A DNA stretch of 64,000 bases from Escherichia coli (GCF_965641715.1 NZ_OZ282453.1), one strand, 5' to 3'; counted from the first letter of the stretch, positions 27,896-43,134 are shown. Program-made: numbers and translations. Notes: generated by a model from the sequence alone, not told the origin.

Positions 27896-28486
27896 ATGAA
27901 CGAAGCCGTTAGCCCAGGTGCGCTTAGCACCCTGTTCACCGATGCCCGCACTCACAACGCCTGGCGGGAGACACCCGTCAGCGATGAGACGTTACGGGAG
28001 CTTTATGCCCTGATGAAATGGGGGCCGACATCAGCTAACTGTTCTCCGGCACGTATCGTGTTTATCCGCACTGCAGAGGGAAAAGAACGTCTGCGCCCGG
28101 CGCTTTCCAGCGGCAATCTGCAAAAAACCCTGACCGCGCCCGTCACCGCTATCGTCGCATGGGACAGTGAATTTTATGAACGGTTACCGCAACTGTTTCC
28201 TCACGGCGATGCCCGCAGTTGGTTTACCTCCAGCCCACAACTTGCCGAAGAAACAGCGTTTCGCAACAGTTCCATGCAGGCGGCTTATCTTATCATCGCC
28301 TGCCGTGCGCTGGGGCTGGATACCGGCCCGATGTCGGGTTTTGACCGTCAACACGTAGACGACGCTTTTTTTGCAGGCAGCACGCTGAAGAGCAATCTGC
28401 TGATTAATATCGGCTATGGCGATAGCAGCAAACTTTTTGCGCGCCTGCCACGTCTGTCCTTTGAAGAAGCCTGCGGGCTGTTGTAA
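27896..28486 (+). CDS. rutE: RutE, nitroreductase-like malonic semialdehyde reductase
   Basis: 196 aa. Synteny. Confidence 0.94.
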
Positions 28487-28496
28487 GGAGCAAACT

Positions 28497-28991
28497 ATGA
28501 ACATTGTCGATCAACAAACTTTTCGCGATGCGATGTCCTGCATGGGTGCGGCGGTCAATATCATCACCACGGACGGTCCAGCCGGGCGCGCCGGGTTCAC
28601 CGCCAGCGCCGTCTGCAGCGTGACCGACACGCCTCCCACATTACTGGTGTGCCTGAATCGTGGGGCTTCCGTCTGGCCGGTATTCAATGAAAATCGAACG
28701 CTGTGTGTAAATACACTTAGCGCCGGGCAGGAGCCGCTTTCAAACCTTTTTGGCGGCAAAACGCCCATGGAACACCGCTTTGCCGCCGCCCGCTGGCAGA
28801 CGGGTGTGACCGGATGCCCGCAACTGGAAGAGGCGCTGGTTTCGTTTGACTGCCGTATCAGCCAGGTGGTGAGCATCGGCACCCACGACATTCTGTTTTG
28901 CGCCATCGAAGCGATTCATCGTCACGCCACACCCTACGGGCTGGTGTGGTTCGATCGCAGTTATCACGCGCTGATGCGCCCTGCTTGTTAA
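28497..28991 (+). CDS. rutF: RutF, flavin reductase
   Basis: 164 aa from [10 protein letters not shown]. Confidence 0.94.
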
Positions 28992-29011
28992 CCTCCTTAA
29001 GGAGACAGCTG

Positions 29012-30340
29012 ATGGCAATGTTCGGTCTTCCTCACTGGCAGTTAAAATCGACCTCTACAGAGAGCGGCGTGGTCGCGCCGGATGAACGATTGCCGTTTGC
29101 TCAGACGGCAATAATGGGCGTTCAACACGCGGTGGCGATGTTTGGCGCGACGGTGTTAATGCCGATTCTGATGGGGCTGGATCCCAATCTTTCCATTTTA
29201 ATGTCGGGGATCGGCACGTTACTGTTTTTCTTTATTACCGGCGGGCGCGTTCCCAGTTATCTCGGTTCCAGCGCGGCTTTTGTTGGTGTGGTGATTGCTG
29301 CAACGGGCTTTAACGGCCAGGGGATTAACCCAAATATCAGCATCGCGCTGGGCGGGATTATCGCCTGTGGGCTGGTTTATACCGTCATTGGCCTGGTGGT
29401 GGTGAAAATCGGCACGCGCTGGATTGAACGGCTAATGCCGCCGGTGGTGACGGGTGCGGTGGTGATGGCGATTGGCCTGAACTTAGCGCCTATCGCGGTA
29501 AAAAGTGTATCGGCTTCAGGCTTTGATAGCTGGATGGCGGTAATGACGGTGCTGTGTATTGGGCTGGTGGCGGTGTTTACCCGTGGCATGATCCAGCGGT
29601 TATTGATTCTTGTAGGATTAATTGTCGCCTGTCTGCTGTATGGCGTGATGACCAACGTTTTAGGGCTGGGAAAAGCCGTCGATTTTACTCTCGTCAGCCA
29701 TGCTGCCTGGTTCGGTCTGCCACATTTTTCCACTCCTGCTTTTAATGGTCAGGCAATGATGCTGATTGCGCCCGTGGCGGTGATTCTGGTGGCGGAAAAC
29801 TTAGGTCATCTCAAGGCGGTCGCCGGGATGACCGGACGCAATATGGACCCGTATATGGGGCGAGCATTCGTAGGCGATGGTCTGGCAACGATGCTTTCTG
29901 GTTCTGTCGGTGGCAGCGGCGTAACCACCTACGCCGAGAATATCGGTGTAATGGCCGTGACAAAAGTCTACTCGACGCTGGTGTTTGTCGCTGCTGCCGT
30001 CATCGCCATGCTGTTGGGCTTTTCACCGAAATTTGGCGCGCTGATTCATACCATTCCGGCCGCGGTGATTGGTGGTGCATCAATTGTTGTGTTCGGGCTG
30101 ATTGCCGTCGCAGGCGCAAGGATATGGGTACAAAACCGTGTCGATTTAAGCCAGAACGGTAATTTGATTATGGTCGCAGTAACCTTAGTGCTGGGCGCGG
30201 GTGATTTTGCTCTCACGCTGGGCGGTTTTACGTTGGGAGGAATCGGTACAGCAACCTTTGGCGCGATTTTACTCAATGCGTTATTAAGCAGAAGGTTGGT
30301 TGACGTTCCACCGCCAGAAGTTGTTCATCAGGAGCCATAA
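29012..30340 (+). CDS. rutG: RutG, pyrimidine (NCS2 family) permease
   Basis: 442 aa from MAMFGLPHWQ. SD AAGGAG upstream. Confidence 0.94.
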   Translation: MAMFGLPHWQLKSTSTESGVVAPDERLPFAQTAIMGVQHAVAMFGATVLMPILMGLDPNLSILMSGIGTLLFFFITGGRVPSYLGSSAAFVGVVIAATGFNGQGINPNISIALGGIIACGLVYTVIGLVVVKIGTRWIERLMPPVVTGAVVMAIGLNLAPIAVKSVSASGFDSWMAVMTVLCIGLVAVFTRGMIQRLLILVGLIVACLLYGVMTNVLGLGKAVDFTLVSHAAWFGLPHFSTPAFNGQAMMLIAPVAVILVAENLGHLKAVAGMTGRNMDPYMGRAFVGDGLATMLSGSVGGSGVTTYAENIGVMAVTKVYSTLVFVAAAVIAMLLGFSPKFGALIHTIPAAVIGGASIVVFGLIAVAGARIWVQNRVDLSQNGNLIMVAVTLVLGAGDFALTLGGFTLGGIGTATFGAILLNALLSRRLVDVPPPEVVHQEP

Positions 30341-30347
30341 ACAGAAA

Positions 30348-30380
30348 ACCGCCGGGATTACCGGCGGTGATGACTTTTTG
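30348..30380 (+). terminator. intrinsic terminator after rutG
   Basis: ACCGCCGG-gatta-CCGGCGGT 8-bp stem followed by gatgacttttt. Confidence 0.75.
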
Positions 30381-30422
30381 ACGAGCTTAAGAAAAAAATG
30401 CATTCGTCATTGATTAGCCCGG

Positions 30423-30596
30423 CTAGTTGTCGCTTTTGCCGTGACTGCTCTTGCCACCTTTTTTACCTGCTTCAGATGCGCGCTGCGGGTCATTCTTGAA
30501 ATTACCCCCGCTGTGCTGTCCACCTTTTTTACCTGCTTCTGATGCTCTTTCGCGGTCTTCTGCAAAATTGCCGGAACCGCCTCGATGGTTTGCCAT
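30423..30596 (-). CDS. ymdF: YmdF, KGG-repeat stress-induced small protein
   Basis: 57 aa from MANHRGGSGNF. Repeated ASEAGKKGG. Matches YmdF. Confidence 0.9.
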   Translation of the reverse strand: MANHRGGSGNFAEDRERASEAGKKGGQHSGGNFKNDPQRASEAGKKGGKSSHGKSDN

Positions 30597-30963
30597 TACT
30601 GACCTCCGTCTGGGTATAGACATCATATTGCATAGAATTAACGCGGCGTATGGCGGCTGCCATATTTTCGCTACGTGGGACTAAGCTTAGTGAACTGACG
30701 CGGGCAGACCCGCGTTTGGTAATATCCTGCAACAGCTTCTTAGCGAGAATAGATATCATCTCCAATAATTATCTATAAGCCGCTCTTATGATTAAAAAAA
30801 CGCGATGAGATAAAAATGTGTCATTTTGCGACAAAATTGCGTGCTTGTGAAAGTTGTTATAAATCAAATAAGTGGTTGTGAAATTTGCACTCTGAAAAGG
30901 ACGTCTTATCTTTAAATAAGTGGTAGCGAATCGCTACGGAATAGAGATAACACGAGGAGTGGT

Positions 30964-31005
30964 TAGAAATGGCTAAAGTTCTGGTGCTTTTACATAGCTA
31001 AACAC
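30964..31005. other. attL of the wrbA island (proposed crossover GT at 30984-30985)
   Basis: The host-to-island transition is located by comparison with the attR junction. GTGCTTT is shared at 30984-30990 and 42533-42539. Confidence 0.7.
30969..31001 (+). pseudogene. wrbA: orphaned native 5' end of wrbA (MAKVLVLLHS*), severed by island insertion
   Basis: ATGGCTAAAGTTCTGGTGCTTT equals the remembered native wrbA start (MAKVLVLYYS...). The sequence diverges after 30990 and hits TAA at 30999-31001. Confidence 0.85.
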
Positions 31006-31329
31006 GTACATTCAACTACCTGTTAATTACAGGACATAAACAGGTTAGTACCTATTCAATTTAAAGGCATTTCCCCAAGTATCTAAGCAATTCTACACAG
31101 ATTCTATGCAGTATCGGTATAGTCCCTTTTTATCATAACTTATTGAAATATATAAAGAATCTGTGAAGTATCTTTTCAGGGTAAACTGTATCGTGTTAGT
31201 CGTCCCTCTCCAGACACTACATATAGTGCTATATACAGGGTTATATAGCGATGTATAGATGCTTGGTCACCATACGTTACAGTTGCAAGAGATAACAATC
31301 AGCTATGTGAAAGTTAGGAAGTGATGGTT

Positions 31330-31367
31330 ATAGTTGATTCGGTTAGTTCTAGGAATCAACCTCATAG
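31330..31367 (+). repeat. hairpin unit U1 (ATAGTTGATTC...CTCATAG family)
   Basis: Stem GTTGATTC (31333-31340) / GAATCAAC (31353-31360), 12-nt loop, then CTCATAG. Confidence 0.7.
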
Positions 31368-31934
31368 TTACCTTGTCAAATCTTCGTAGTTCCTCTTAAA
31401 AAATCACTTACAGACACCTTAATATCTATACAGATTTCATGTAGAACACGATTAGTGCGTAAAAAAGCTATTATGTTAAAAACGCACTGTATACGTATCA
31501 GTACTGATTTATAAGGGTTTTGTGTATTGGCTGATAAGAGGCTATACAGCACCTTGAGAGCATGTCTTGTAAGTCATTGATACATAAGGTCACAGAAGTT
31601 TGTAGCTGTTACAGAGAAAACTGGATAGGACTTCACAGGACTATAAAATGTTACAGCAATTGATAGGTGAAATCTTCTTGATAGATGCTGTGAAGTGTGA
31701 TGAAGGTTTCTTGAGGTGGAGTTAACAGATGCTATGAAGAAAGTCAATAGATATTTTAAAATTCTGCAAAGGGGGCCACATAGCTGGTGTGACGGGTACT
31801 TAGCAGGTATAGACCTGTGATAGATATTTTCGAAGATTCGGGGAAGATGAGATTCAAAGAGGACTAGTCATTTTTTATAAAAATTTTCAGAGTCTGAAAA
31901 GTTACTGCACAGATTTTGCACAATCCTACCAAGC

Positions 31935-31969
31935 CTCATAGTTGATTCGATTAGAAGCTAATCTCATAG
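31935..31969 (+). repeat. hairpin unit U2
   Basis: CTCATAG-TTGATTC, then stem GATTAG / CTAATC with loop AAG, then (C)TCATAG. Confidence 0.7.
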
Positions 31970-31972
31970 AAA

Positions 31973-32085
31973 GCTCTGTAGCGAGTTTTAACCCCATTTT
32001 TAGGGGTAACCTGTAGGGATGTACCACCCACCTTAAAATAAAGGGGTAAAATCGCTTAGAATGCGTTACAGAGCGTCTGAGAAGC
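31973..32085. repeat. inverted-repeat arm Y (partner 35643-35755)
   Basis: The reverse complement aligns without gaps to 35643-35755. 81 of 113 positions are identical by hand count. Confidence 0.75.
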
Positions 32086-32596
32086 CATATTCACAGATTT
32101 TACTAAAACCTCAGACTTCTAAGTGGTCTTTTTAACAGGAGGGTTCTTTCTCATGTATCACCCTCTCTTCCCGCCAAGTAAGCTACACAGACCTAGAGAA
32201 TATGCCTTCACAGCATCTATATCAGGTCAGATTTAGAGGTCTTGATAGAATCTTCAAAGGTACTTGACAGATAACTATGAAGTTGTTAGGAAGGGGTGTT
32301 TAACGGGGGAAGAGATACGATATAACCCGAAGGGGAGAGTATCATCTTAACAGTGATTGTAAGAGTAAAACTGAAAAGATACTTAACAGAACTACCAAGA
32401 GGGAGCGATAAGACCAGAGGTAGTGACCTGTTAAACAGTTCGTTTCAAAGCTCTTAAGAGTCTGTTAAGTAAGGTCATGTGAACAATCATATCATTTTGT
32501 CAATGCTTTTGTCTTTGACCTAAATCAATAAAATGTATCGTTTGATGTGCTTTTAAACAAAATAGTTAAAAATCTTTTTAGAGGGGCGCTTCGCTT

Positions 32597-33265
32597 GTGT
32601 CACATCCAATAATCCATATCGGTCGTTATCATGGTGGTTCTGATGACTGGCGTACACCGTATCGTCTATTTCATAACCTGCATCGTGAGTATAGCTTCAG
32701 TCTAGATGGCGCTGCAACTGAGCATGACGCATTGTTGCCACGGTTCACCGATGATATAAACCGTCAATCATGGGTTGGTGAACGGGTCTTCGTTAACCCG
32801 CCGTTTAGCATGGCTGAACAGTTCCTCGCAAAAGCCCCTGAAGCTGATGTGTGTGTATGTCTGGTTCCGCACAGGTCAAAGACAACTTACTGGCTTCGGT
32901 GTGTATATACAAACCCCTTCCTGCATGAGATTCGAACATTACACCGAGCGGTTAAATACCTTCCACCAGCAGGAAAGAGAGGTGTTGTAGCGCGTTCACC
33001 ATTTGCAAGCTGTGTTTTGATATACAGGAACACACCCCGTAAACCGAAGGTTGAAATTACCCAGACAATCTATTGTGGCGACACAATGCTTTTACTTGCC
33101 GTGGTTAATAGGGGTGGTTTACGTGGAAGACCTCATATACACGATGCACAGACGCTTGACAGGTTGATTAAAATGCATGACCAAGGGCAATCCGTCAAGA
33201 GTATCGCAGAATCGCTAAGAATGCCTCTAAGCACCACTTACAGGATTGTTCAAAGGTTGAGCTAA
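32597..33265 (+). CDS. phage Dam-family N6-adenine DNA methyltransferase fused to a C-terminal resolvase-type HTH
   Basis: GTG start with GAGGGG 10 nt upstream. DWRTP...FSLDGAA and VFVNPPFS (motif IV) resemble the phage T1/Stx-phage Dam family. The C-terminus GRPHIHDAQTLDRLIKMHDQGQSVKSIAESLRMPLSTTYRIV resembles the Hin/resolvase HTH. Confidence 0.75.
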   Translation: MSHPIIHIGRYHGGSDDWRTPYRLFHNLHREYSFSLDGAATEHDALLPRFTDDINRQSWVGERVFVNPPFSMAEQFLAKAPEADVCVCLVPHRSKTTYWLRCVYTNPFLHEIRTLHRAVKYLPPAGKRGVVARSPFASCVLIYRNTPRKPKVEITQTIYCGDTMLLLAVVNRGGLRGRPHIHDAQTLDRLIKMHDQGQSVKSIAESLRMPLSTTYRIVQRLS

Positions 33266-33266
33266 A

Positions 33267-33296
33267 ATTCTCATATAGAGCACTGATTATGAGAAT
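33267..33296 (+). terminator. 9-bp perfect hairpin directly after the methyltransferase stop
   Basis: ATTCTCATA (33267-33275) / TATGAGAAT (33288-33296), 12-nt loop. No clear T-tract, so its function is uncertain. Confidence 0.35.
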
Positions 33297-33474
33297 GTTA
33301 AAGAGGCGATTTCCCCTTTCTGGGGTTATTCGCTTTTTACTGGAAGGGTTATTTTACAGAGGTTTTTCAAACCCCCTCAATAATAAAAAACGAGCAACAA
33401 ACGAAGAGCGAGAAATAAAATATTGAGACTGGTGAACGGGGTCTGTAAAGATTGTTTAAGAAGTCGGTTTAGGG

Positions 33475-33518
33475 ATTGGTAGATGATTCGGATGAAGCAT
33501 CCTCATAACAATACCAAT
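33475..33518 (+). repeat. hairpin unit U3 (nested stems)
   Basis: Outer stem ATTGGTA / TACCAAT. TGATTCG. Inner stem GGATG-AAG-CATCC, then TCATAA. Confidence 0.65.
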
Positions 33519-33574
33519 TAGAAGGTGGCTCTCCCTTTCTGGGGATATCGCCTTGTATCTTAGTGAGTCCAGGA

Positions 33575-33751
33575 AGTTCTCTGTGAAGGGACTTGTCAGT
33601 CCTTTATATTGGCTAATTACAACTTATTGAAAAATAAGCATTTTTAGAAATCACTGTTAAGGTTACAGAGTTCTCTGTGAAGAGACTCGTCAGCTCTCTA
33701 TATTGGCTAATTACAACTCATTGAAAAATAAGCATTTTTAGAAATTGCTGT
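33575..33751 (+). repeat. two direct 83-bp repeats with 94-bp period
   Basis: 33575-33657 against 33669-33751: 75/83 identical by hand count. Each copy contains CTGTGAAG...CTTGTCAG/CTCGTCAG and the hairpin CTTATT-gaaa-AATAAG (copy A; copy B reads CTCATT). Confidence 0.85.
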
Positions 33752-33871
33752 CAGAGAGGTGAGTACTTGATAGATACAGCTTTCCGGTTCTGTCAAGATA
33801 TTTTTTAATAGATAGCACAAAATGCTAAAGATACCCCTATACCATCACGTACAGGGGGTTTTGAAGGGAGT

Positions 33872-34060
33872 TTAACGGGGTTCTGTGTGGTTATCTGTTC
33901 TGGTCCTGTCCTTGAGGTCAAATGACCATTCACGACCAAACAATCTGAACACGATAAACACCCGAACGATGAAATAGCGGAGCAGAAGACCTGCAATCAG
34001 CCCAACACCTCCACCAGCCCATACATCAGGTGACCCCAGCTCAGGAGGGAGATTTACCAT
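33872..34060 (-). CDS. possible small membrane protein (62 aa from the internal ATG; 74 aa from the first ATG at 34096)
   Basis: Only minus-strand ORF in the island besides int. This patch is visibly more GC-rich than the surrounding non-coding DNA. AGGAA lies upstream of ATG 34060. TM segment GGGVGLIAGLLLRYFIVRVFIVF followed by a basic tail. Confidence 0.35.
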   Translation of the reverse strand: MVNLPPELGSPDVWAGGGVGLIAGLLLRYFIVRVFIVFRLFGREWSFDLKDRTRTDNHTEPR

Positions 34061-34097
34061 TAAATTTCCTGTGTGCAATGCAATACCATGTGACATA

Positions 34098-34153
34098 CAT
34101 AGTTGATTCGGTTAGTTGGGCTTGTACCAACCCCTATCGAATAAACCTCATAG
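34098..34153 (+). repeat. hairpin unit U4 (nested stems)
   Basis: CATAGTTGATTCGGTTAGTT is identical to U1 over 19 nt. Outer stem TTGATTCG / CGAATAAA, inner stem GTTGG / CCAAC, ends in CTCATAG. Confidence 0.7.
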
Positions 34154-34222
34154 CCACGCTTCATATTTCCCCCTCTCTCATAAACCATTATACCACAAAT
34201 GTTACGAAATTGTTAAAAATAC

Positions 34223-34251
34223 TTGACATTAGTCTTTGAAAATGCTAGTAT
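34223..34251 (+). promoter_or_regulatory. island promoter P1 (sigma70-type)
   Basis: TTGACA-17 nt-TAGTAT, preceded by TGTTAAAAAT and followed by TGTATATA. It is a near-copy of P2. A GTTAA-N7-TTAAC palindrome follows at 34261-34277. Confidence 0.65.
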
Positions 34252-34299
34252 TGTATATAAGTTAACAGAGAATTAACAATTATAAGGACTAGCTTATGA

Positions 34300-34857
34300 A
34301 TGAACGACAGAGAATTTAGAGCGATGCTTCAGGCATCGAGACAACGTAACAGATACAACTCCTACAGCTACACAGACACCCCCACCAGCTACGAACTACC
34401 CAAGCTCACCAGAGCAGAACGCAAAGGCCTTGATGAATTAATTCGTAGCATTACGCCACGAGATAGATTTATGCCAACCAGAAAGAGCACGAAGAACACT
34501 ATTAAAAATTATCTGGCTAACTTTGACAGCTACGAACAATTACCAAGTAAGCTTGATGATGTAATTATCGGATTCTGTAGAAGTGAAGGTCACCCGAAAT
34601 ACAACAAAAAACTATTTTATCTTCTAAAGAATCTTGACGAAATTAACTCAGCCACCGTGACAAATCATCTTCAGCGTCAAGCAACCAGACTTAGCCATGA
34701 ATTACCAAGCGATAAATATTGCGCTTTGCTTGCTGTAATGTGCGCAAAGTTAATTGGTGTTGTTGAGCATCATATTGCCGTTGGAAATATTGAGCCAATG
34801 GAAAACGAGCAACCAGATTTCGAGTTTGACCCGTATTTAGTTACAGAGGAATTTTAA
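34300..34857 (+). CDS. hypothetical protein, 185 aa
   Basis: AAGGA upstream. First gene after P1. No family recognised. Confidence 0.65.
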   Translation: MNDREFRAMLQASRQRNRYNSYSYTDTPTSYELPKLTRAERKGLDELIRSITPRDRFMPTRKSTKNTIKNYLANFDSYEQLPSKLDDVIIGFCRSEGHPKYNKKLFYLLKNLDEINSATVTNHLQRQATRLSHELPSDKYCALLAVMCAKLIGVVEHHIAVGNIEPMENEQPDFEFDPYLVTEEF

Positions 34858-35136
34858 ATGAAGAAACACACTTTGACCCGTATTTCAGAAGAAGCCTTTC
34901 ACGAGCTTACCCGAATTAAACAGACAACTAACCTCCCTCATCAAACTGTTATGCAGCTTGCAATTGCTAAAGAGGTTACTGAGTCGGATTTACTGAAATA
35001 TCCAGTCTCTAAAGGTCGTAAGCACATCCGAATTACTCAGGACGCTTTAGATACTTTGAAGGCACTTAACAACTTTAAAATTGATATCGCCCGACTATTG
35101 AGTATTAAGATTCACAAGTTAGCAATGGGGGTTTAA
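34858..35136 (+). CDS. hypothetical protein, 92 aa (possible ribbon-helix-helix DNA binder)
   Basis: ATG abuts the upstream TAA. The N-terminal KKHTLTRISEEAFHEL pattern looks RHH-like (weak). Confidence 0.55.
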   Translation: MKKHTLTRISEEAFHELTRIKQTTNLPHQTVMQLAIAKEVTESDLLKYPVSKGRKHIRITQDALDTLKALNNFKIDIARLLSIKIHKLAMGV

Positions 35137-35351
35137 TGCTATGCGTTACCTTTGAATACCACACGGATAAAATGATTCGCTACATCTCCGACCTCCTGAT
35201 TGAAGGAAACGGATTCGGTGACATCCATAACTCAAAAGATATTTTCATTAAAGCCATTGGCCCAAATGAAGTACTGAAAACAGCAGTTAAACCGGAATGG
35301 TTTGAGCGTCACAAGATTGAATTAGGTTATTGGGGTGAGGAGGTTTTATGA
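35136..35351 (+). CDS. hypothetical protein, 71 aa
   Basis: TAATG overlap with the upstream gene. Confidence 0.55.
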   Translation: MLCVTFEYHTDKMIRYISDLLIEGNGFGDIHNSKDIFIKAIGPNEVLKTAVKPEWFERHKIELGYWGEEVL

Positions 35352-35635
35352 AACCTTGGCATGAAGATGTTAGACGATATTTTACAGAACACCTTATCTA
35401 TGATGAATCCAGTGATTCCCTGTGCTGGTCTGATGGAGAGTCAGTCACGATAAACACCGACGACTACGGCAACAAAACATTTAATATAGGCCGATATACT
35501 TTCTACGTGAAATATGTTGTCTGGTTCCTTTATCATGGCTATCAATCCAACAAGCAAATTATCCATCGAAATGGTAACAGAGCCGATACCAGACCAAAAA
35601 ATCTTATGCAAGTCCGAGACTTTAAGAGAAATTAG
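35348..35635 (+). CDS. small HNH-type endonuclease-like protein, 95 aa
   Basis: ATGA overlap with the upstream gene. YVVWFLYHGY...IHRNGNRADTRPKNL resembles the HNH_3 motif (H-x-N-G-N..DNR..NL). Confidence 0.65.
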   Translation: MKPWHEDVRRYFTEHLIYDESSDSLCWSDGESVTINTDDYGNKTFNIGRYTFYVKYVVWFLYHGYQSNKQIIHRNGNRADTRPKNLMQVRDFKRN

Positions 35636-35642
35636 AAAAACA

Positions 35643-35755
35643 GCTTCTCAGACGCTCTCAATCGCATTCTAACGCAAAAAACTATCTTATTTTAGGGTGG
35701 GTAATACCACTGTACAGGCTACCCCTGAAAAAGACTGTTTAGCTCGTTACAGAGC
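35643..35755. repeat. inverted-repeat arm X (partner 31973-32085)
   Basis: See arm Y. Lies in the 156-bp gap between the HNH gene and the next ORF. Confidence 0.75.
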
Positions 35756-35791
35756 GATTGAGGAGGTCTGGTAAAAAGGAGATTTTAAGAA

Positions 35792-36121
35792 ATGAGAGAA
35801 TTAAACTTCCCACTACAGATTTTTATTGATACCGACACCGCCATGATGATTCAGGCTTTCACTGATGTAGGTGTTAGCATTGACTTTGATAAGTTGTTAG
35901 AGTTAATGACTGATAATGCGGAAAGCATCTCTGACTTTATTCAGTCGGTGGAGTTTAACGAGCCTCGAATGATGCTACCAATTAAAGACAGCAACATGAA
36001 AAGATTGGTTATCGAGCAAACGAACAAATTCAGCGTTAGCCCTGAAAAATATCTCAAGGCGGCTATAGCAATTTTGTACGCTGACAATATTTTGGTGACG
36101 GATTCGAAGGTGGTGCATTAA
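35792..36121 (+). CDS. hypothetical acidic protein, 109 aa
   Basis: AAGGAG lies 8 nt upstream of the ATG. Confidence 0.6.
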   Translation: MRELNFPLQIFIDTDTAMMIQAFTDVGVSIDFDKLLELMTDNAESISDFIQSVEFNEPRMMLPIKDSNMKRLVIEQTNKFSVSPEKYLKAAIAILYADNILVTDSKVVH

Positions 36122-36186
36122 TGGAATTGGTGATTATCTGTTTTGTATTGATTGGTATGATTGCAGGTGCATCTATTAAAGTATAA
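36121..36186 (+). CDS. 21-aa hydrophobic peptide MELVIICFVLIGMIAGASIKV
   Basis: TAATG overlap with the upstream stop (translational coupling). Single TM-like stretch. Below the ORF-track size cutoff. Confidence 0.4.
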   Translation: MELVIICFVLIGMIAGASIKV

Positions 36187-36211
36187 ATGTTACCAATCTG
36201 TTAAAAATCTG

Positions 36212-36240
36212 TTGACAAATAACCTTGAGCATGACATAAT
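36212..36240 (+). promoter_or_regulatory. island promoter P2 (sigma70-type)
   Basis: TTGACA-17 nt-CATAAT, preceded by TGTTAAAAAT and followed by TGTATATA. Confidence 0.65.
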
Positions 36241-36246
36241 TGTATA

Positions 36247-36503
36247 TATATGAGGATAGTCTTCTATCCGAAGTCTATAGGGAGAGCAATTCTCCTTGAA
36301 TTAAAATATTAATCATCTCTACATCAATGATAACTATATTCTGAGTTGGTGAGGTATGTTCTATACCGAACATTCTGAAAGGTGCAATGCTTTTCGTCAT
36401 GGCCTTTCAGTTTAGTCTGAGAGGCTATCTCAAAAAGTGCTTAATCATTCATTCATTGAATCCTTTACAGCTTTGCCCTAATCATGAGTTAGGGCGTTTC
36501 TTT
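36247..36503 (+). ncRNA. putative ~255-nt leader/short RNA from P2 to the first terminator
   Basis: No ORF of 60 aa or more. Hairpins GGATAG-tctt-CTATCC, GGAGA-gcaat-TCTCC and CTGAAAGG (36375-36382) / CCTTTCAG (36403-36410). Ends at an intrinsic terminator. Confidence 0.3.
36475..36503 (+). terminator. intrinsic terminator in the P2 leader
   Basis: GCCCTAA-tcatgag-TTAGGGC followed by GTTTCTTT. Confidence 0.7.
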
Positions 36504-36573
36504 AAGAGTTTTAAGCAGAGCTTTTAAAGAAAGTTTTTCCTGAAACTTCGTTAACGTTATAAAGCAAACCTTC

Positions 36574-36610
36574 AAAGCCCTTCACAGATTCAATGTTTAG
36601 GGCTTTTCTT
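36574..36610 (+). terminator. second hairpin/terminator in the P2 leader
   Basis: AAAGCCCT / AGGGCTTT 8-bp stem. The 17-nt loop contains CTTCACAGATT. Followed by TCTT. Confidence 0.45.
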
Positions 36611-36707
36611 AATAGAGCATCTTTAATAAATCGTTAAGTCATCTTCTAAGTGTATTGGCGTTGAAGGTGCTCTGTTAAGAAATAAACCACACTTAGAGGA
36701 AGTTATA

Positions 36708-37418
36708 ATGACAAACGATTTATATATTAACGGTAAAAAGGTTGATAGCTTCGGTGACTGGTCGCCACAGACTGAACATCCAGCTATCACTATTCAGCGC
36801 AAAGAACACGATGAAAGAATTGCACTTGAGCAAGAAATCCGAATGTCACCAAAGGTAATTTCCTTTGTGGCTCCTGAGCCTCAAGATATGCCGGATATTT
36901 GCAAAACTGAAGCATTGCTTGAGCTTGAAAAGAAATTTTACCCAGCTTTAAAAGCACAGCGTCTTAAACTAGATGACGCTTACAGTAAAGTTACCCTGAT
37001 GCAATCAGCTATTGAGCCATCAGAATTTGAGATTCAGGATGAATTGTCACAGAAACCATTTGTCTATTACCAATATGAAGACAATGATGGTTTTGGTACT
37101 TTTCCTGAGAATATCCCAGACGTGATTAATAATCCGATGGATGGATATCGAATTGTGAAGATGGTTAAGGCATCAAGAGGTGCTGGTCAGTTTATTTACA
37201 TGACTAATAAGAGCGATGAAGAACTCGCTGAACTTGCTAGACAGAACATCTTGGCATCACGTAACAAGCAGCTTGATAATGTTAAGTTGTATCTCTCAAG
37301 AGAGCTTCAGGCTATGAAAGACCTTGTGAAAGAATATGAAGATGCTAAGAAGATTGCTATGCAAGCCGATATTGAGCAGTTAGTGAAGATTTCTAGCAAA
37401 TATGCAAAGGCTATTTAA
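36708..37418 (+). CDS. hypothetical acidic/coiled-coil protein, 236 aa
   Basis: AGAGGAAG upstream. It sits where tail assembly chaperones sit in siphophage gene order, but I saw no sequence motif supporting that role. Confidence 0.6.
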   Translation: MTNDLYINGKKVDSFGDWSPQTEHPAITIQRKEHDERIALEQEIRMSPKVISFVAPEPQDMPDICKTEALLELEKKFYPALKAQRLKLDDAYSKVTLMQSAIEPSEFEIQDELSQKPFVYYQYEDNDGFGTFPENIPDVINNPMDGYRIVKMVKASRGAGQFIYMTNKSDEELAELARQNILASRNKQLDNVKLYLSRELQAMKDLVKEYEDAKKIAMQADIEQLVKISSKYAKAI

Positions 37419-37437
37419 TTATGATGTGAGGTGAAGA

Positions 37438-37653
37438 ATGATTGATTTAACTGAACGCTATGAAGTTATTAAGTCTGTTTGTGAGAACTTAAAGCTTCAG
37501 ACTAAACCAAAGCTACGAATTAAAAATCAGCATCAAGTTATCACCTCACACAAACCAAAGGTTAGAAGGATTCCTTCATGGTGTATTGACCGTGTTCCTG
37601 CTGATGCTCAATTAATTGGTGAGTCTGGTTCTTACACTTATATCCTTCATTAA
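37438..37653 (+). CDS. hypothetical basic protein, 71 aa
   Basis: GAGGTGAAG upstream. Confidence 0.5.
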   Translation: MIDLTERYEVIKSVCENLKLQTKPKLRIKNQHQVITSHKPKVRRIPSWCIDRVPADAQLIGESGSYTYILH

Positions 37654-37660
37654 AAATTAC

Positions 37661-37704
37661 AAAGGGGAGAGATTAGCCTTAATTGGTTAGTCTTTCCCTT
37701 TTTC
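37661..37704 (+). terminator. imperfect hairpin + T-run upstream of the tape-measure gene
   Basis: aaaggggagaga ... tctttccctttttcg, with a bulged stem. Confidence 0.4.
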
Positions 37705-37734
37705 GTATATGAACACTTAAGAGGTGAAACATGA

Positions 37735-39864
37735 ATGGCACAGTTTAAAGTTGATAGTTTTATCGTTGAGCTAGGCTTCAGCGAGAACGTTATTAAGGGC
37801 TTGCAAAGAGTTGAAAAGGCAGCTTTGCAGTCAGCACAAAGAATTGAGCGTAATTTGAATAGAGCGTTTAAGGTCGATACCAAGCAACTTGACAGCAATT
37901 TAACGGCTTCTTTGAAGTCAATGGAAGGAAAAATTAATAAGACCTTTGACCGTCTGGAAGCTAGAGCAAAAAATACTAAAGCTTTCCAGTTTACCACCAG
38001 ATTTAATGACACTGTTAATCCTCCAAAACAACCGAGACAGCCACGAATTAGCGGCAACAGAGCAATCACAGCAGCTTACTCAGCGAATATGAGCAAGTTA
38101 AAGGGCTTTGACCCTATTTTGCAGAAATACATCAAATCTCAGTTTTACGGGCTATCTGCTAAAGCTGGGTCAATGGATAACACCAAGTTTAATGAAGCCC
38201 TTGCTAAACTAAATTCAAGTGTAAGAGAAGCAATTGCTAAAGCTAAAGGTCATACATCCACCAGCATTAACGGTGACAGAGCAGCTAATAGTCTTGATAA
38301 CCTGTCTTCAGCGGCGGTTAAAACAGCAGGTGCATTTATCTCAATGCAGGCTGTATTAGCCAGTTATCAGAAGATTATGGAGGTTGGTTTACAGCGTGCA
38401 AGTGCTGAGCGTTCAATTGATTTCGTATTTGATAAAGATGCAGGTCAGGTAAAAGAGTTCACAAAGTCATTAGCTCAAACAACGGGTTTAGATATCGCTG
38501 AACTGCAATCACAGTTTGCTGGTTTCGGTGCTTCAGCTAAAGAGTCTATGGGTATTCAAGGTTCTGAAGAGCTTTTTAGAAATATGATTGGCTATGCTCG
38601 TTTAATGGGTCGAAGTGAAGAAGAGATTAAGCGAGCACTGACAGCATTATCACAGATGGCTGGTAAGGGTCAGGTTATGGCTGAAGAGCTTAAGGGGCAA
38701 CTAGCTGAAGCTGTTCCTGGTATGGTTCAGGTATTCGCTAAAGCAACCGGAAAGAGTGAACAGGAATTATTTGATGCCATGAAGAAGGGGGCTTTAAAAT
38801 CTGCCGATACTCTTCAGAAGGTCACTCAGGAACTGAATAGACAAATCACCGCTAAAGGTGGCTGGAAAGCTATTTCAGAAAGTACACAGGCACAACTAGG
38901 GAACTTGAAAAACTCTTGGAATACCACGCTTGACAGTATTTTCAGAGGTTCTGAAGATGGTTTACAGGACTTCACAAGAAGCTTAACCAATCTTCTAAAC
39001 GCTCTTGGTGGAACTGGTAAAACATTAGGTGAAAGTTTTGGTAGCTTGATGAGCGATATGTCACATGGTATCGATTCATTGACTGATATCTCTTACAGGG
39101 TACGAGGTTTCTTTGATGAGGTGACATTAGCTTACCGTTCACTAAATGACACTCAGAAAAAAATTGTTGATGGTTTATCTGATGGGTTAATTGATGGTTT
39201 GAAAATGCTTGCCGTAGCTGTTACTGCTCAAAAGGCTGCAAATGTAGCTGGAGGCTTGTTAAACCTTGCAAACGCTGTTACTTCATTCGGTGACGCTGTT
39301 AATAAAGCTAAAGCTGGCAAGGCTGGTTCTTCAGGTGGTGCGCTAAGTAAAGTCGGTAGAGTTGTCCTTTATGCTGAGTTGGTAAACTTTGCTCTTGATA
39401 ATTTAAACCCTGAAGCAGCTAAGAATCCGAACTTACATCAATCAGGTATTGGAACAGAGACAAACTTCAACCCTGAATACAAAGGCGATTCTACACCAAA
39501 CCAAATTAATGATGGATGGGCTAAGATTGGTAGTTCTATCGCTGACTGGTTTAATGGTGCGGCTAATAAAATTGCTAACTTCCAAGAGCCAATGAGTAAC
39601 CTTGTTAATAACACACAATCAACTCCACCAGCTATTACAGGTGACATGGTTAATAGCAATGCTCAACTTGCAATGGCTATTAGTGAACTATCACGTAAGG
39701 TTGATGCTTTAACAGCAGAATCTAAGAAGCCCTTGTCACTTAATATCAAAGGTGAAGCAATTGTTAGACCGGATGAACCAGCTTTCTTTACTTTCAATCA
39801 ATCAGCTAATGACCAGTTCACGCAGGATATGCTCTTAAGTTCAAGCTATCCAGAGGAAGAATGA
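37735..39864 (+). CDS. phage tail tape-measure protein, 709 aa
   Basis: GAGGTG lies 8 nt upstream. LSQMAGKGQVMAEELKGQLAEAVPGMVQVFAKATGKSEQELFDAMKKGALKSADTL matches the conserved tape-measure N-terminal domain pattern. Long Ala/Gly/Ser-rich helical protein. Confidence 0.8.
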   Translation: MAQFKVDSFIVELGFSENVIKGLQRVEKAALQSAQRIERNLNRAFKVDTKQLDSNLTASLKSMEGKINKTFDRLEARAKNTKAFQFTTRFNDTVNPPKQPRQPRISGNRAITAAYSANMSKLKGFDPILQKYIKSQFYGLSAKAGSMDNTKFNEALAKLNSSVREAIAKAKGHTSTSINGDRAANSLDNLSSAAVKTAGAFISMQAVLASYQKIMEVGLQRASAERSIDFVFDKDAGQVKEFTKSLAQTTGLDIAELQSQFAGFGASAKESMGIQGSEELFRNMIGYARLMGRSEEEIKRALTALSQMAGKGQVMAEELKGQLAEAVPGMVQVFAKATGKSEQELFDAMKKGALKSADTLQKVTQELNRQITAKGGWKAISESTQAQLGNLKNSWNTTLDSIFRGSEDGLQDFTRSLTNLLNALGGTGKTLGESFGSLMSDMSHGIDSLTDISYRVRGFFDEVTLAYRSLNDTQKKIVDGLSDGLIDGLKMLAVAVTAQKAANVAGGLLNLANAVTSFGDAVNKAKAGKAGSSGGALSKVGRVVLYAELVNFALDNLNPEAAKNPNLHQSGIGTETNFNPEYKGDSTPNQINDGWAKIGSSIADWFNGAANKIANFQEPMSNLVNNTQSTPPAITGDMVNSNAQLAMAISELSRKVDALTAESKKPLSLNIKGEAIVRPDEPAFFTFNQSANDQFTQDMLLSSSYPEEE

Positions 39865-40020
39865 TTTAACGGTGTTCTACGTGAATAAAGCAAAGTTAAT
39901 ACCCACACCAAAAATTATTTTTCACGTAGCTCACGCTTAACAGAGAAAATACATATATATCAAAGGCTTGGTTAAAAATGATTAAAATACACTAAGCCTT
40001 TGAAATCAAAGGAGAATTTA

Positions 40021-40794
40021 ATGATTTTTAGCAATCAAATCCGCTACAGTGGCAAAGATGGCATCTATTTCCACTTAAGAGATAATGTAGATGCCTTCTT
40101 AACCTTATCAGCAACTGAAAACATGGAATTTGACAGTCCTATGCAGGTGACTACACAGAACATGCAATCAGGGCAAACCGTCACAGATAATGTGCAAAGA
40201 GCACCCAGAACAATCACTATTAGTGGTGTCGTTGTAGTTGGCTATGAAGGAAGCTTATTATTAACTCGTCAGGGTCAATTAGTAGAAAACTTCATTGACA
40301 CTCTTGAAAGCTGGAGAGACCAGAAACAAATTATTTCAGTGATTTGTAAAGATGGTATCAAGATTGATGACTCAATTATTACCAACTTTAAAGCCTCTAA
40401 AGATGTTACTATCTCTAACGGTCTTCGTATCCAGCTAACTTTTCAGGAAATTAACTTCAAAGCCATTGTAGGGCAAACTGATGTTTCAGCAGCTACTGGC
40501 AAAACTGCTACCACTAATGATGGTGGTGCTACCAGTAAAAAGAATGCGGGTAACGTGACTACTGAACGCAATAACGCACCTATGTTGATGTGTCAGGAAC
40601 TGTATAGCTACTCAGCATCTGAGCTATCTGATGAAGCGCTAAGGGTCCGTAGCAATTGCTCTAAAAATGTCACGGTGAAAGATGGTGTAAGCACCTTCAC
40701 AGCCTCAGCTAATGAGCAGGCTTCAAAAGTGCTTAAGTCGGGTAATGCTTTACGGAAGTTTAGTGTGAATCCGAATAAGAAGGGCACTTATTGA
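40021..40794 (+). CDS. putative tail-tip/distal-tail-like protein, 257 aa
   Basis: GGAG lies 6 nt upstream of ATG 40021. Sits directly after the TMP. The assignment rests on position only. Confidence 0.45.
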
Positions 40795-40811
40795 TTGGTA
40801 ACAATACCAAT
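40794..40811. terminator. hairpin between the convergent tail gene and int
   Basis: ATTGGTA-acaa-TACCAAT. These are the same arms as the outer stem of unit U3. Confidence 0.45.
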
Positions 40812-40813
40812 TC

Positions 40814-42457
40814 CTAAGCGTCCACCTCTTCCATATCACCAGCAGGATAAATCCTTGTTACTGGTTCACCAAAAATAAGCATATCATCTAGTGACTGCAT
40901 CTCATCGGTTGCTTCTTCAAGCGTTAAGGTGTGGTCATCTTTACCATCAAGAGGGAAACCACGAATCATATTTCCATTGTGAAGATATATATCCACCAGC
41001 TTTTCATTACCAGAAACAACAATCTCTTTCACCAGACGCTTAATGATAATCTGGGCTTCAGTTCTCCCCTCTACAGACTCCATATCAAGACCGCTTAAAT
41101 CCAAGCTTGATACAGATTTTACCCTCGCCTTTTCTCGTGATAACTGAACTATCAGTTCATCTTTTTCTTCCTGCTTAACCCGTAGTGCTTCCTGAATCTG
41201 AGTGATGTTAGGAAGCTGTATCAGCGTCTCAGTAAGTTTTTCAAGTTCACTATCAACGGTGTTTAGTCTGCGTTGTAGCTCATCCAATTTAGCTGTGTCA
41301 GTAGCTTCATCGTGTAGCTGTGATAGTTTGCTGAACAGACGACTACAAAGCTGTGTATCAAGTAACTTTCTGGACACTGTACCGTAGCTACAACGGGACT
41401 CCTTATTACCATTGCAACGGTAAGTACCTTGATAAACGGGTTTACGTATCCCTGTAGGAGTCATTACAAGCCCACACTTACAACGGATAAGCCCCTTCAG
41501 TATGTTCACATATAGCCAGTGTTCACCGCTGGATGTTTTCCCCTTCCCTGTTTCCTCTAACAGTTGCTGTACAGCGTAAAACTTAGAGTCTGTGACAATC
41601 TGAGGATAGAACCCTTCAATTTCTTCACGTAACACTGTTTTACGGTCTTCTGTAGAAATCTTAGCGGGAAGGTAACCTAATACACTTCGTGAAGTCAGGA
41701 TGTGTTTAACGCTTAATGCTGACCAGTTGCCATCCGGTTTCTTAGTCTTGGATATTCTGACCTTACGCTGATTAATGGTCGGGTAACCTTGTTCGTTTAG
41801 CCATTTACAGATAGCAAACATCGACATACCAGAAAGACGCTTGTCATAGATGATATTCACCAGTGACGCTTTATCTTCATCAACGATGTAGTGTGAACCG
41901 TCTTCTGATAGCTCTAACCATCCGGGGGCTTGCTTACCCATAGGCTTCTTAAGTTCTCTTGCAAGCTGTGTTTTATGGTTCCAGACCTGAGCTATACGCT
42001 TTTGCTTAACAAGAGATTCCTGATGTGCTCTCTCAGCTATGATGATGTGCTTAATCAACTTCACAGGGTCTGTTAATGCTGATTTGTCGTAGAGTTCACC
42101 ATCTCCCAGAGTCAGTATAGAGACTCCTTTCCTCAGTATCTGCCTGACATCATCTATAGCTGTGTCGATATCAGCCCTACTGAAGCGGTCAAAGTTCTCT
42201 ACAACAATCAGGGAACCTTCTGGAATAGCCCCAGACATAACATTTTCAAACATACGTCTGAAGTCAGAACCTTGAGCCTTATGTTGCTGGTGAAAACCAG
42301 ATTTACCCTTATCAACGTATCTGTGAGCAGGAAGAAGGTAATAATCGTTTTTGTGCTTAGAGTAGAAAGCATCAATGAGGTTTGTTTGCCGTCTTAAGGA
42401 GTCTCCTGAGTCTTGCTCTTTAGTACTCCACCTGATGTATGTCACTAGCAGCTTCAT
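40814..42457 (-). CDS. large serine recombinase (integrase), 547 aa
   Basis: N-terminal resolvase catalytic domain ([28 protein letters not shown]). Recombinase domain. Cys-rich zinc ribbon (CKCG...YRCNG...C). Coiled-coil. Terminal position 75 bp from attR. Confidence 0.88.
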
Positions 42458-42508
42458 ATCTTCGGACTATGCTTATCTAAGTGGTTCATTGAACAGGAGA
42501 ACAATGAT

Positions 42509-43114
42509 ATGAGTGTTAAGGCAAGAATACTAGTGCTTTATTATTCCATGTACGGACATATTGAAACGATGGCACGCGCAGTCGCTGAGGGTGCAAGCAA
42601 AGTGGATGGCGCTGAAGTTGTCGTTAAGCGTGTACCGGAAACCATGCCGCCGCAATTATTTGAAAAAGCAGGCGGTAAAACGCAAACTGCACCGGTTGCA
42701 ACCCCACAAGAACTGGCCGATTACGACGCCATTATTTTTGGTACACCTACCCGCTTTGGCAACATGTCCGGTCAAATGCGTACCTTCCTCGACCAGACGG
42801 GCGGCCTGTGGGCTTCCGGCGCACTATACGGAAAACTGGCGAGCGTCTTTAGTTCCACCGGTACTGGCGGCGGTCAGGAACAAACCATCACATCCACCTG
42901 GACGACCCTTGCGCATCACGGCATGGTGATTGTCCCCATTGGCTACGCAGCGCAGGAATTATTTGACGTTTCACAGGTTCGCGGCGGTACGCCGTACGGC
43001 GCAACCACCATCGCAGGCGGTGACGGCTCACGCCAGCCAAGCCAGGAAGAACTGTCTATTGCTCGTTATCAAGGGGAATATGTCGCAGGTCTGGCAGTTA
43101 AACTTAACGGCTAA
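42509..43114 (+). CDS. wrbA: NAD(P)H:quinone oxidoreductase WrbA, hybrid allele with an island-encoded N-terminus
   Basis: 201 aa. [17 protein letters not shown]... against remembered native [14 protein letters not shown].... AGGAG at 42495-42499. The remainder matches WrbA. Confidence 0.92.
42513..42554. other. attR of the wrbA island (proposed crossover GT at 42533-42534)
   Basis: Island-to-wrbA transition. See attL. Confidence 0.7.
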
Positions 43115-43134
43115 TCTTCAACAGGAGGATACGC

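Follow-up and report, generated by a model that had tools for sequence, protein, structure and literature searches.

What does a 1.6-kb stretch of DNA without genes do at the end of a mobile island? The question arises from 64,000 nucleotides (nt) of an Escherichia coli chromosome (NZ_OZ282453.1), the whole of which we call the window, where a low-GC island of 11,549 nt (30991-42539) lies within the first codons of wrbA and has an arm free of open reading frames (ORFs) as its left end. The initial annotation described this arm as non-coding, cis-acting DNA of a mobile island, densely seeded with over-represented words that might be the iterons of a replication origin. Its view of the arm as cis-acting non-coding DNA is borne out. 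There is indeed no ORF of at least 60 aa in 30766-32596, and the two largest in the arm (57 and 58 aa, on the minus strand) are interrupted in relatives by stops or frameshifts, so that the arm is truly non-coding. As to its function, we give a probability of about one half to the interpretation, drawn from sequence comparison, that the arm serves a satellite-like island, dependent on Felix O1-type lytic phages, as its cis-acting "hijack" region, and that its core imitates the site at which the helper genome end is made.

The phage side of this comparison is the terminus of the Felixounavirus genome. Phage Andreotti has an ORF-free region of 1.6 kb of its own (80708-82363), dense in CTTAACA(G/A) and CTAACAAG sites that are mostly 11 bp apart. 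The record of phage Ro111lw has identical ends of 613 bp, which map to Andreotti 81296-81909 (L055 36296-36909), several independent phage records start or end exactly at these points, and packaging with direct terminal repeats, of 581 bp, has been reported for a Felixounavirus (PMC8303462). The matching record ends, together with the published terminal repeat, indicate that the phage non-coding region contains the direct terminal repeat, with the iteron array inside it. Both ends of this repeat begin with an inward-facing ...CCCTTAACA motif, and about 25 CTTAACAR/CTAACAAG sites, spaced 11 bp apart, occupy its interior, an array of which we found no description in the Felix O1 genome paper (PMC3185647).

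Part of the arm is homologous to this terminus. The homology is visible only by short-word blastn against one phage and in profile searches; when the whole arm was compared by blastn with 50,697 phage records, there was no match at E <= 1e-5. With short words, the three best matches of the arm in the 83-kb phage fall in the phage non-coding region, two of them collinear and with an identical spacing of 123 nt. A profile built from four phage non-coding regions and run against the whole window has its best match at 31917-31683 (E = 1.1e-13), which is block C of the arm (Table 1), and its next at 32466-32398 (minus strand; E = 0.002), a segment resembling the interior of the phage terminal repeat whose equivalent in relatives reaches E-values down to 1e-6; all seven best matches lie in island non-coding DNA. 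Reciprocally, profiles of blocks C and E2 recover phage positions 81179-81311 (E = 3e-11) and 81532-81647 (E = 1.4e-4), respectively. When five phages and nine islands are aligned, the segment spans the junction between repeat and unique sequence, and the bases flanking the terminus (CTG.T..GTA.CC) as well as three boxes are invariant; the equivalent of the phage terminus in the window falls between 31800 and 31801. The CTTCACAG copy at 31688 (minus strand) aligns position for position with the phage sequence CTTAACAG, and a weight matrix of the phage sites finds 18 matches in the arm against 6.7 ± 2.6 expected, or 7 against 2.1 ± 1.3 at a stricter threshold. The match of module D to the phage region beyond the repeat was marginal in the window (E = 0.018) and was not recovered in relatives, and we do not rely on it.

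The segment at the phage terminus is also what the island family keeps. Comparison of 53 related loci, from which the division of the arm into blocks was made, shows arms of 1050-2000 nt that are mosaic and collinear, with blocks A and C in nearly all relatives and in both methyltransferase clades. All 49 island loci with enough upstream DNA (49/49) keep block C, in one orientation and upstream of the methyltransferase gene, and 538 of 5426 complete E. coli genomes (~10%) contain block C-like sequence, always in the chromosome. This bears on the possibility that the arm is merely decaying or neutral DNA, its word excess reflecting no more than duplicated modules and a phage-like composition, as its mosaic structure and variable length, the borderline significance of the exact 8-mers and the ordinary conservation of the word positions (see below) would allow. 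That blocks A and C persist in both clades and in so many genomes, that the boxes common to distant phages are invariant, and that no gene remnant is detectable in the arm make such an explanation most improbable.

The rest of the island points to the same phages. Among its proteins, only the tape measure protein and the Dit-like distal tail protein have phage homologues, the latter being 75% identical to Felixounavirus (Felix O1-like phage) proteins. The island order (window 37438-40794) is a 71-aa ORF, the tape measure gene and the Dit-like gene, and that of the phage (L055 6211-9475) is a chaperone, the tape measure gene and a 265-aa protein; the tape measure is 709 aa long in the island and 742 aa in the phage. 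No capsid, terminase or defence families were detected among the island proteins, and the genes that are not listed in Table 1 encode a small HNH protein and several small proteins without family assignment. In addition, island and phage have an oligonucleotide signature in common, since GATC sites are absent from the island (0 against 45 expected) and from the 83 kb of Andreotti (0 against 266 expected), and from the relatives too, the one exception being an insertion sequence (IS) element inserted in one relative. No such avoidance is seen for other 4-bp palindromes, and the absence of GATC gives independent support to a life style common to the island and Felixounavirus. Because an island with no GATC site encodes a Dam-family methyltransferase, this enzyme probably either recognises a different target or acts on DNA other than the island. 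Homology to a terminus site, conservation across the family, and the lack of a terminase and capsid of its own next to other signs of phage dependence are found together in this island.

The repeated words of the arm can be read against this background. Every copy listed in the initial annotation, including the variants at 32089 and 31429, stands at the coordinate and on the strand given, and the words do recur in the other non-coding gaps of the island. CTTCACAG occurs at 31631, 32206 and 36580 on the plus strand and at 31161, 31688, 33581 and 33675 on the minus strand, with two further, intragenic copies (40695 and 42059, plus strand) that had been missed; CACAGATT occurs at 31096, 31908, 32092 and 36583 (plus) and 31158 (minus), and GTTACAGAG at 31608, 32065, 33662 and 35746, with a fifth copy, again intragenic and previously missed, at 34840. 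The claimed over-representation holds family-wise for the core that all the leading words have in common, but not for the single words. This core, ACAG, has 23 copies on the plus strand against 9.1 expected, and of 1000 dinucleotide shuffles just 5 contained any 4-mer as deviant; the top 5-mers and 6-mers do not reach family-wise significance (122/1000 and 129/1000 shuffles), and the top exact 8-mer of the island non-coding DNA is borderline, its 7 copies comparing with a mean of 3.8 and a maximum of 7 for the commonest word of a shuffle. The unified pattern T[ACT]ACAG, which was picked post hoc, has 21 copies against 3.4 ± 1.9 expected. Part of the excess is due to longer repeated modules of 16-21 nt that have these words as cores, namely a 20-nt dyad at 31160, 33580 and 33674 (inverted copy at 32371), a 16-mer at 31093, 31426 and 36580, and a 21-mer at 32064 and 35745. 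The TTAACAG/CTGTTAA subfamily matches the phage iteron CTTAACAR, and each island word may be a binding site.

It was from these words that an origin had been proposed. An iteron-type origin like that of P4 (ori/crr) or of the Vibrio PLE would have an initiator of the island or of the helper bind the words and melt an adjacent AT-rich tract. The enriched word cores and the conserved AT-rich box AAAATTTTTATAAAA of block C would suit this, the island needs some route of replication, the helper origin is unmapped and could sit in the same phage non-coding region, and the 2.7-kb non-coding region of PLE has repeats that form its origin (PMC7145576). The proposal was right in that the words are related to a real iteron field, the CTTAACAR array of the phage terminal repeat, but the origin itself is not supported, because the words are unphased, lie on both strands and are not extra-conserved, DnaA boxes are at chance level, and no initiator, primase or helicase gene is detectable. 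Where several phased or tandem direct repeats of one sequence of ~17-30 bp would be expected, the island words are short, irregularly spaced and neither tandem nor phased, and the longest direct families of the arm consist of 2-3 dispersed copies of 16-21 nt. The resemblance of several copies to DnaA boxes does not exceed chance, with 55 one-mismatch copies in the whole window against 62 expected and no exact TTATNCACA in the arm. Searches of the island proteins in Pfam, PHROGs and NCBIfam detected no replication family (initiator, primase, helicase or RepA_N), six small proteins being without assignment. Finally, the homologous phage segment lies exactly on the mapped genome terminus. We thus regard an origin as unlikely, and the strongest signal of the arm, its homology to the genome-end junction, more likely points to packaging or end processing than to an origin of the P4 or PLE type.

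The CTTCACAG subfamily, read as CTGWRAAG, has 17 copies in the island (8 of them in the arm) against 5 in the 52 kb outside, and these words form dyads. Being island-specific and dyad-forming, the subfamily more likely binds a protein encoded by the island itself. On this evidence the arm could be a set of sites for a serine recombinase or for the methyltransferase protein with its helix-turn-helix (HTH) domain, either a res-like or invertible segment or a field of operators, the island of the window having lost its recombinase cassette. A small serine recombinase gene (182-205 aa) stands exactly at the place of block B in 16 of the 31 distinct arms of relatives (L011, L013-L015, L017, L018, L027, L031, L033, L034, L036, L042, L043, L046, L047 and L053), the inverted repeat of CTGWRAAG dyads listed in Table 1 brackets the centre of the arm and, in L014, the recombinase gene, and the first gene past the arm encodes an HTH_7 domain. 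The recombinase gene and the segment enclosed are, however, invariant in orientation within each gene type (16 loci), the arms are all collinear, the words persist in islands without a recombinase, and the arm of the window has neither a recombinase gene nor a remnant of one. Since the homology to the phage terminus would also be left unexplained, we consider this account distinctly improbable, although recombinase-site or operator roles may hold for the CTGWRAAG dyads. These dyads are comparable to the sites of the Hin/Gin/Cin invertases and to Tn3-type res sites in being inverted dyads of ~20 nt with, in relatives, a small serine recombinase gene between them, and differ from them in that no inversion was observed, that there is no AAACC-NN-GGTTT core and that the arm in the window is without the recombinase gene. 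Two candidates within block B were ruled out, a decayed invertase gene, of which tblastn found no remnant in the window, and the small ORFs as genes, which are not conserved in relatives. The small recombinase of the relatives comes in two gene types, each fixed in orientation, with multimer resolution, inversion or a part as cargo marker as candidate roles.

To return to the phage-terminus homology, the mechanism we propose is as follows. The universally kept core, block C, would be a copy of the site that generates the phage genome end, where the 613-bp direct terminal repeat meets unique sequence; the piece at 32398-32466 resembles the repeat interior, and part of the ACAG-core words (TTAACAG/CTGTTAA) would be degenerate CTTAACAR iterons of the phage repeat. 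On infection, the helper terminase and an iteron-binding protein would treat replicated island DNA as a phage-like substrate, and the helper machinery would cut the island and package it into helper capsids, which would then be joined to tails for which the island supplies the tape measure and distal tail proteins. Binding, cutting, packaging and dependence on the helper are steps that we infer from the sequences compared above.

Several results weigh against this mechanism. Of the two terminal-repeat junctions, a homologue was detected for one only, the second having no significant match in the island, and the TTAACAG motif beside the phage terminus is altered in the islands (GTCACAC) or absent. 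The 11-bp phasing of the phage array is not seen in the island words, conservation at the word positions does not significantly exceed that of the flanking sequence (identity of 0.896 against 0.873, p = 0.24), and the phage non-coding region shows no concentration of CTGWRAAG words. The phage junction region could itself serve replication, end protection or packaging. In addition, a methyltransferase-based scan found no relatives of the island in viral contigs, and island-sized metagenome contigs are integrated copies, all starting in chromosomal flanks, with no circular or packaged forms among them.

The features of the arm and of the island are collected in Table 1.

Table 1. Features of the island and its left arm, with positions in the window.
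Feature	Position	Strand	Remarks
Crossover core GTGCTTT	30984-30990		Left island boundary; second copy 42533-42539; same insertion in L001 and L004
ORF-free arm	30991-32596		Mosaic of non-coding blocks A to E
Block A	31017-31335		Left-end block, kept in 39 distinct relatives; contains CTACACAGATTCTATG (31093-31108) and the 20-nt dyad TCTGTGAAGTATCTTTTCAG (31160-31179)
Inverted repeat, left arm	31160-31179		19/20 match with partner 32371-32390; each arm is a dyad of CTGWRAAG half-sites (CTTCACAG on the other strand); same pair in L014
Block B	31335-31683		Non-coding cassette rich in TCACAG and TTACAG words
Block C	31683-31917	-	Homologue of the Felixounavirus direct-terminal-repeat/unique junction; boxes AAAATTTTTATAAAA, GAAAATATCT, CTGCT..GTA.CC, CCCCCTTTGCA.AATTTTAAAATATC
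Module D	31973-32125	+	Strongly folding element of ~105-150 nt; contains GTTACAGAG; inverted copy (~80% identity) at 35600-35770 (-)
Block E	32125-32596		Last block of the arm
Block E2	32290-32480		Run of weak hairpins whose stems are TTAACAG/CTGTTAA words (z = -0.4 to -2.0)
Block E3	32470-32596	+	Nearly invariant leader of the methyltransferase-HTH gene
Dam-family N6-adenine methyltransferase fused to a resolvase-type HTH_7 domain	32597-33265	+	Always the first gene past the arm
Two tandem repeats of ~94 nt	33575-33751	+	Carry CTGTGAAG words; sub-motifs in common with arm 31132-31179
Divergent sigma-70-like promoters with TGTTAC-N5-TGTTAA box	34187-34251		Second copy 36175-36240; TGTTAA is the -35 hexamer of the leftward promoter
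Tape measure protein	37735-39864	+	Homologous to Felixounavirus gene
Dit-like distal tail protein	40000-40794	+	Homologous to Felixounavirus gene; order with tape measure as in the phage
Large serine recombinase (island integrase)	40814-42457	-	Protein family matches

Some elements of the arm fold, which raises the possibility that it is transcribed into a single large, structured RNA or into a number of small RNAs, in either case non-coding. Folding of module D and of its inverted copy is much more stable than that of shuffled sequence (z = -4.2 and -4.0), with closing stems that differ in sequence, and the hairpins of block E2 keep their pairing in two alleles of different sequence, the covariation being confined to these two alleles. 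Against this, the stability of the E2 hairpins is low, for most 160-nt windows of the arm neither strand folds better than shuffled sequence, the plus- and minus-strand consensus folds of block B have just 5 pairs in common, an Rfam scan of 28000-48000 at E <= 1 gave no match in the island, and there is no strong promoter within the arm, all of which makes an RNA function of the arm very unlikely. One giant structured RNA was rejected by the sliding-window and consensus folds on both strands, and G-U versus A-C pairs were uninformative as to the strand. For the two copies of module D, a small RNA, an antisense pair and a signal at the DNA level are all conceivable; the second of them overlaps both the end of the HNH gene and the leader that precedes the next ORF.

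Other small elements recur in the island. A mini hairpin (ATAGTTGATTCGGTTAG...CTCATAG), flanked by short direct repeats, is found at 31330-31368, 31938-31962 and 34099-34140, and its presence varies among relatives (L001-L004 lack it at 31935-31962, and L013 at 31336-31368), so that it behaves like a tiny mobile insertion. The two back-to-back promoter pairs have a box of 34 nt in common and look like a switch region for two rightward operons and a leftward, membrane-like ORF of 74 aa (33872-34096). An interpretation of their TGTTAA boxes as phage-type operators is weakened because TTAACA is there the -35 hexamer of the leftward promoters.

At its right end (window 42494-42540), the island replaces the first codons of wrbA and supplies a new ribosome-binding site and a start codon at 42509, so that wrbA stays intact (201 aa) despite the insertion. 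The same island architecture is found in other strains, at wrbA and also at a DUF72 gene between yecN and yecD, and methyltransferase-based scans of species-representative genomes revealed no relatives. In strain O177:H21 (L002 22466-24773), an IS21-family element lies inside the serine recombinase region of the island, and this copy is probably immobilised. No tRNA genes were found, and a match to naRNA4, a nucleoid-associated RNA derived from repetitive extragenic palindromic (REP) sequences, at 47721-47799 on both strands lies outside the island and is an ordinary feature of E. coli.

Among known satellites, the PLE of Vibrio cholerae, whose helper is the lytic myovirus ICP1, had been put forward as an analogy, aptly as it turns out. 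Both elements have a large serine integrase and a lytic myovirus as presumed helper, both have a kilobase-scale non-coding region with several types of repeat (for PLE, PMC7145576), and both encode their own tape measure and tail hub or distal protein while having no capsid and terminase genes. Vibrio PLEs replace the tape measure and hub proteins of the helper (PMC12987554), and by analogy the E. coli island may build chimeric tails. There is, however, no sequence relationship between the two, and the island, which differs in its host and in its phage group (Felixounavirus), lacks a RepA_N initiator; whereas the PLE repeats are iterons for an initiator, the conserved core of the island is a homologue of the terminal-repeat junction of the helper.

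Satellites that carry the packaging signal of their helper are known from P4 with its cos site, from cos-type Staphylococcus aureus pathogenicity islands such as SaPIbov5, and from E. coli phage-inducible chromosomal islands with cos. As in these, a satellite without a terminase of its own would keep the end-generating site of the helper for packaging by the helper terminase, but the cos helpers are temperate and have cohesive ends, whereas the helper of this island uses direct terminal repeats, and in the island just one junction and scattered iteron-like words are recognisable. Plasmids that carry the concatemer junction of T7 are packaged by that phage, and T7-type junctions resemble the phage site described here in that a direct terminal repeat occurs together with short-repeat arrays, which flank or fill it; no sequence similarity is known, and the cis-requirements of Felixounavirus packaging may differ. 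The likeness to P4 ori/crr lies in the repeated short words in satellite non-coding DNA, but P4 has phased direct repeats and its own alpha primase-helicase that binds them, neither of which the island has.

These comparisons suggest a wider proposal, to which we give somewhat less than even odds, namely that the island belongs to a common and as yet undescribed family of satellites whose helpers are strictly lytic Felix O1-like phages, the equivalent of PLE in E. coli, and that its arm is a miniature phage genome end for packaging through the terminal repeats of the helper. In the full-text literature, of which our coverage is incomplete, we came across neither an account of this island family nor one of any satellite of Felix O1-like phages. 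That a satellite carries the packaging signal of its helper is a known principle; a mimic of the terminal-repeat junction of a lytic helper would be a new variant of it, and we know of no satellite packaging signal described for helpers with direct terminal repeats.

To our knowledge, Vibrio PLE with ICP1 is the only case in which a satellite of a virulent phage is known in detail. Because Felix O1-like phages are widely used in typing, biocontrol and therapy, a common E. coli family tied to them would be a tractable second system. If the proposal is true, it would show how a satellite can exploit helper packaging via direct terminal repeats, and would make the conserved boxes around the phage terminus candidates for cis-elements of Felixounavirus packaging. 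Roughly one in ten E. coli strains may then carry an element that interferes with, or rides on, Felix O1-like phages.

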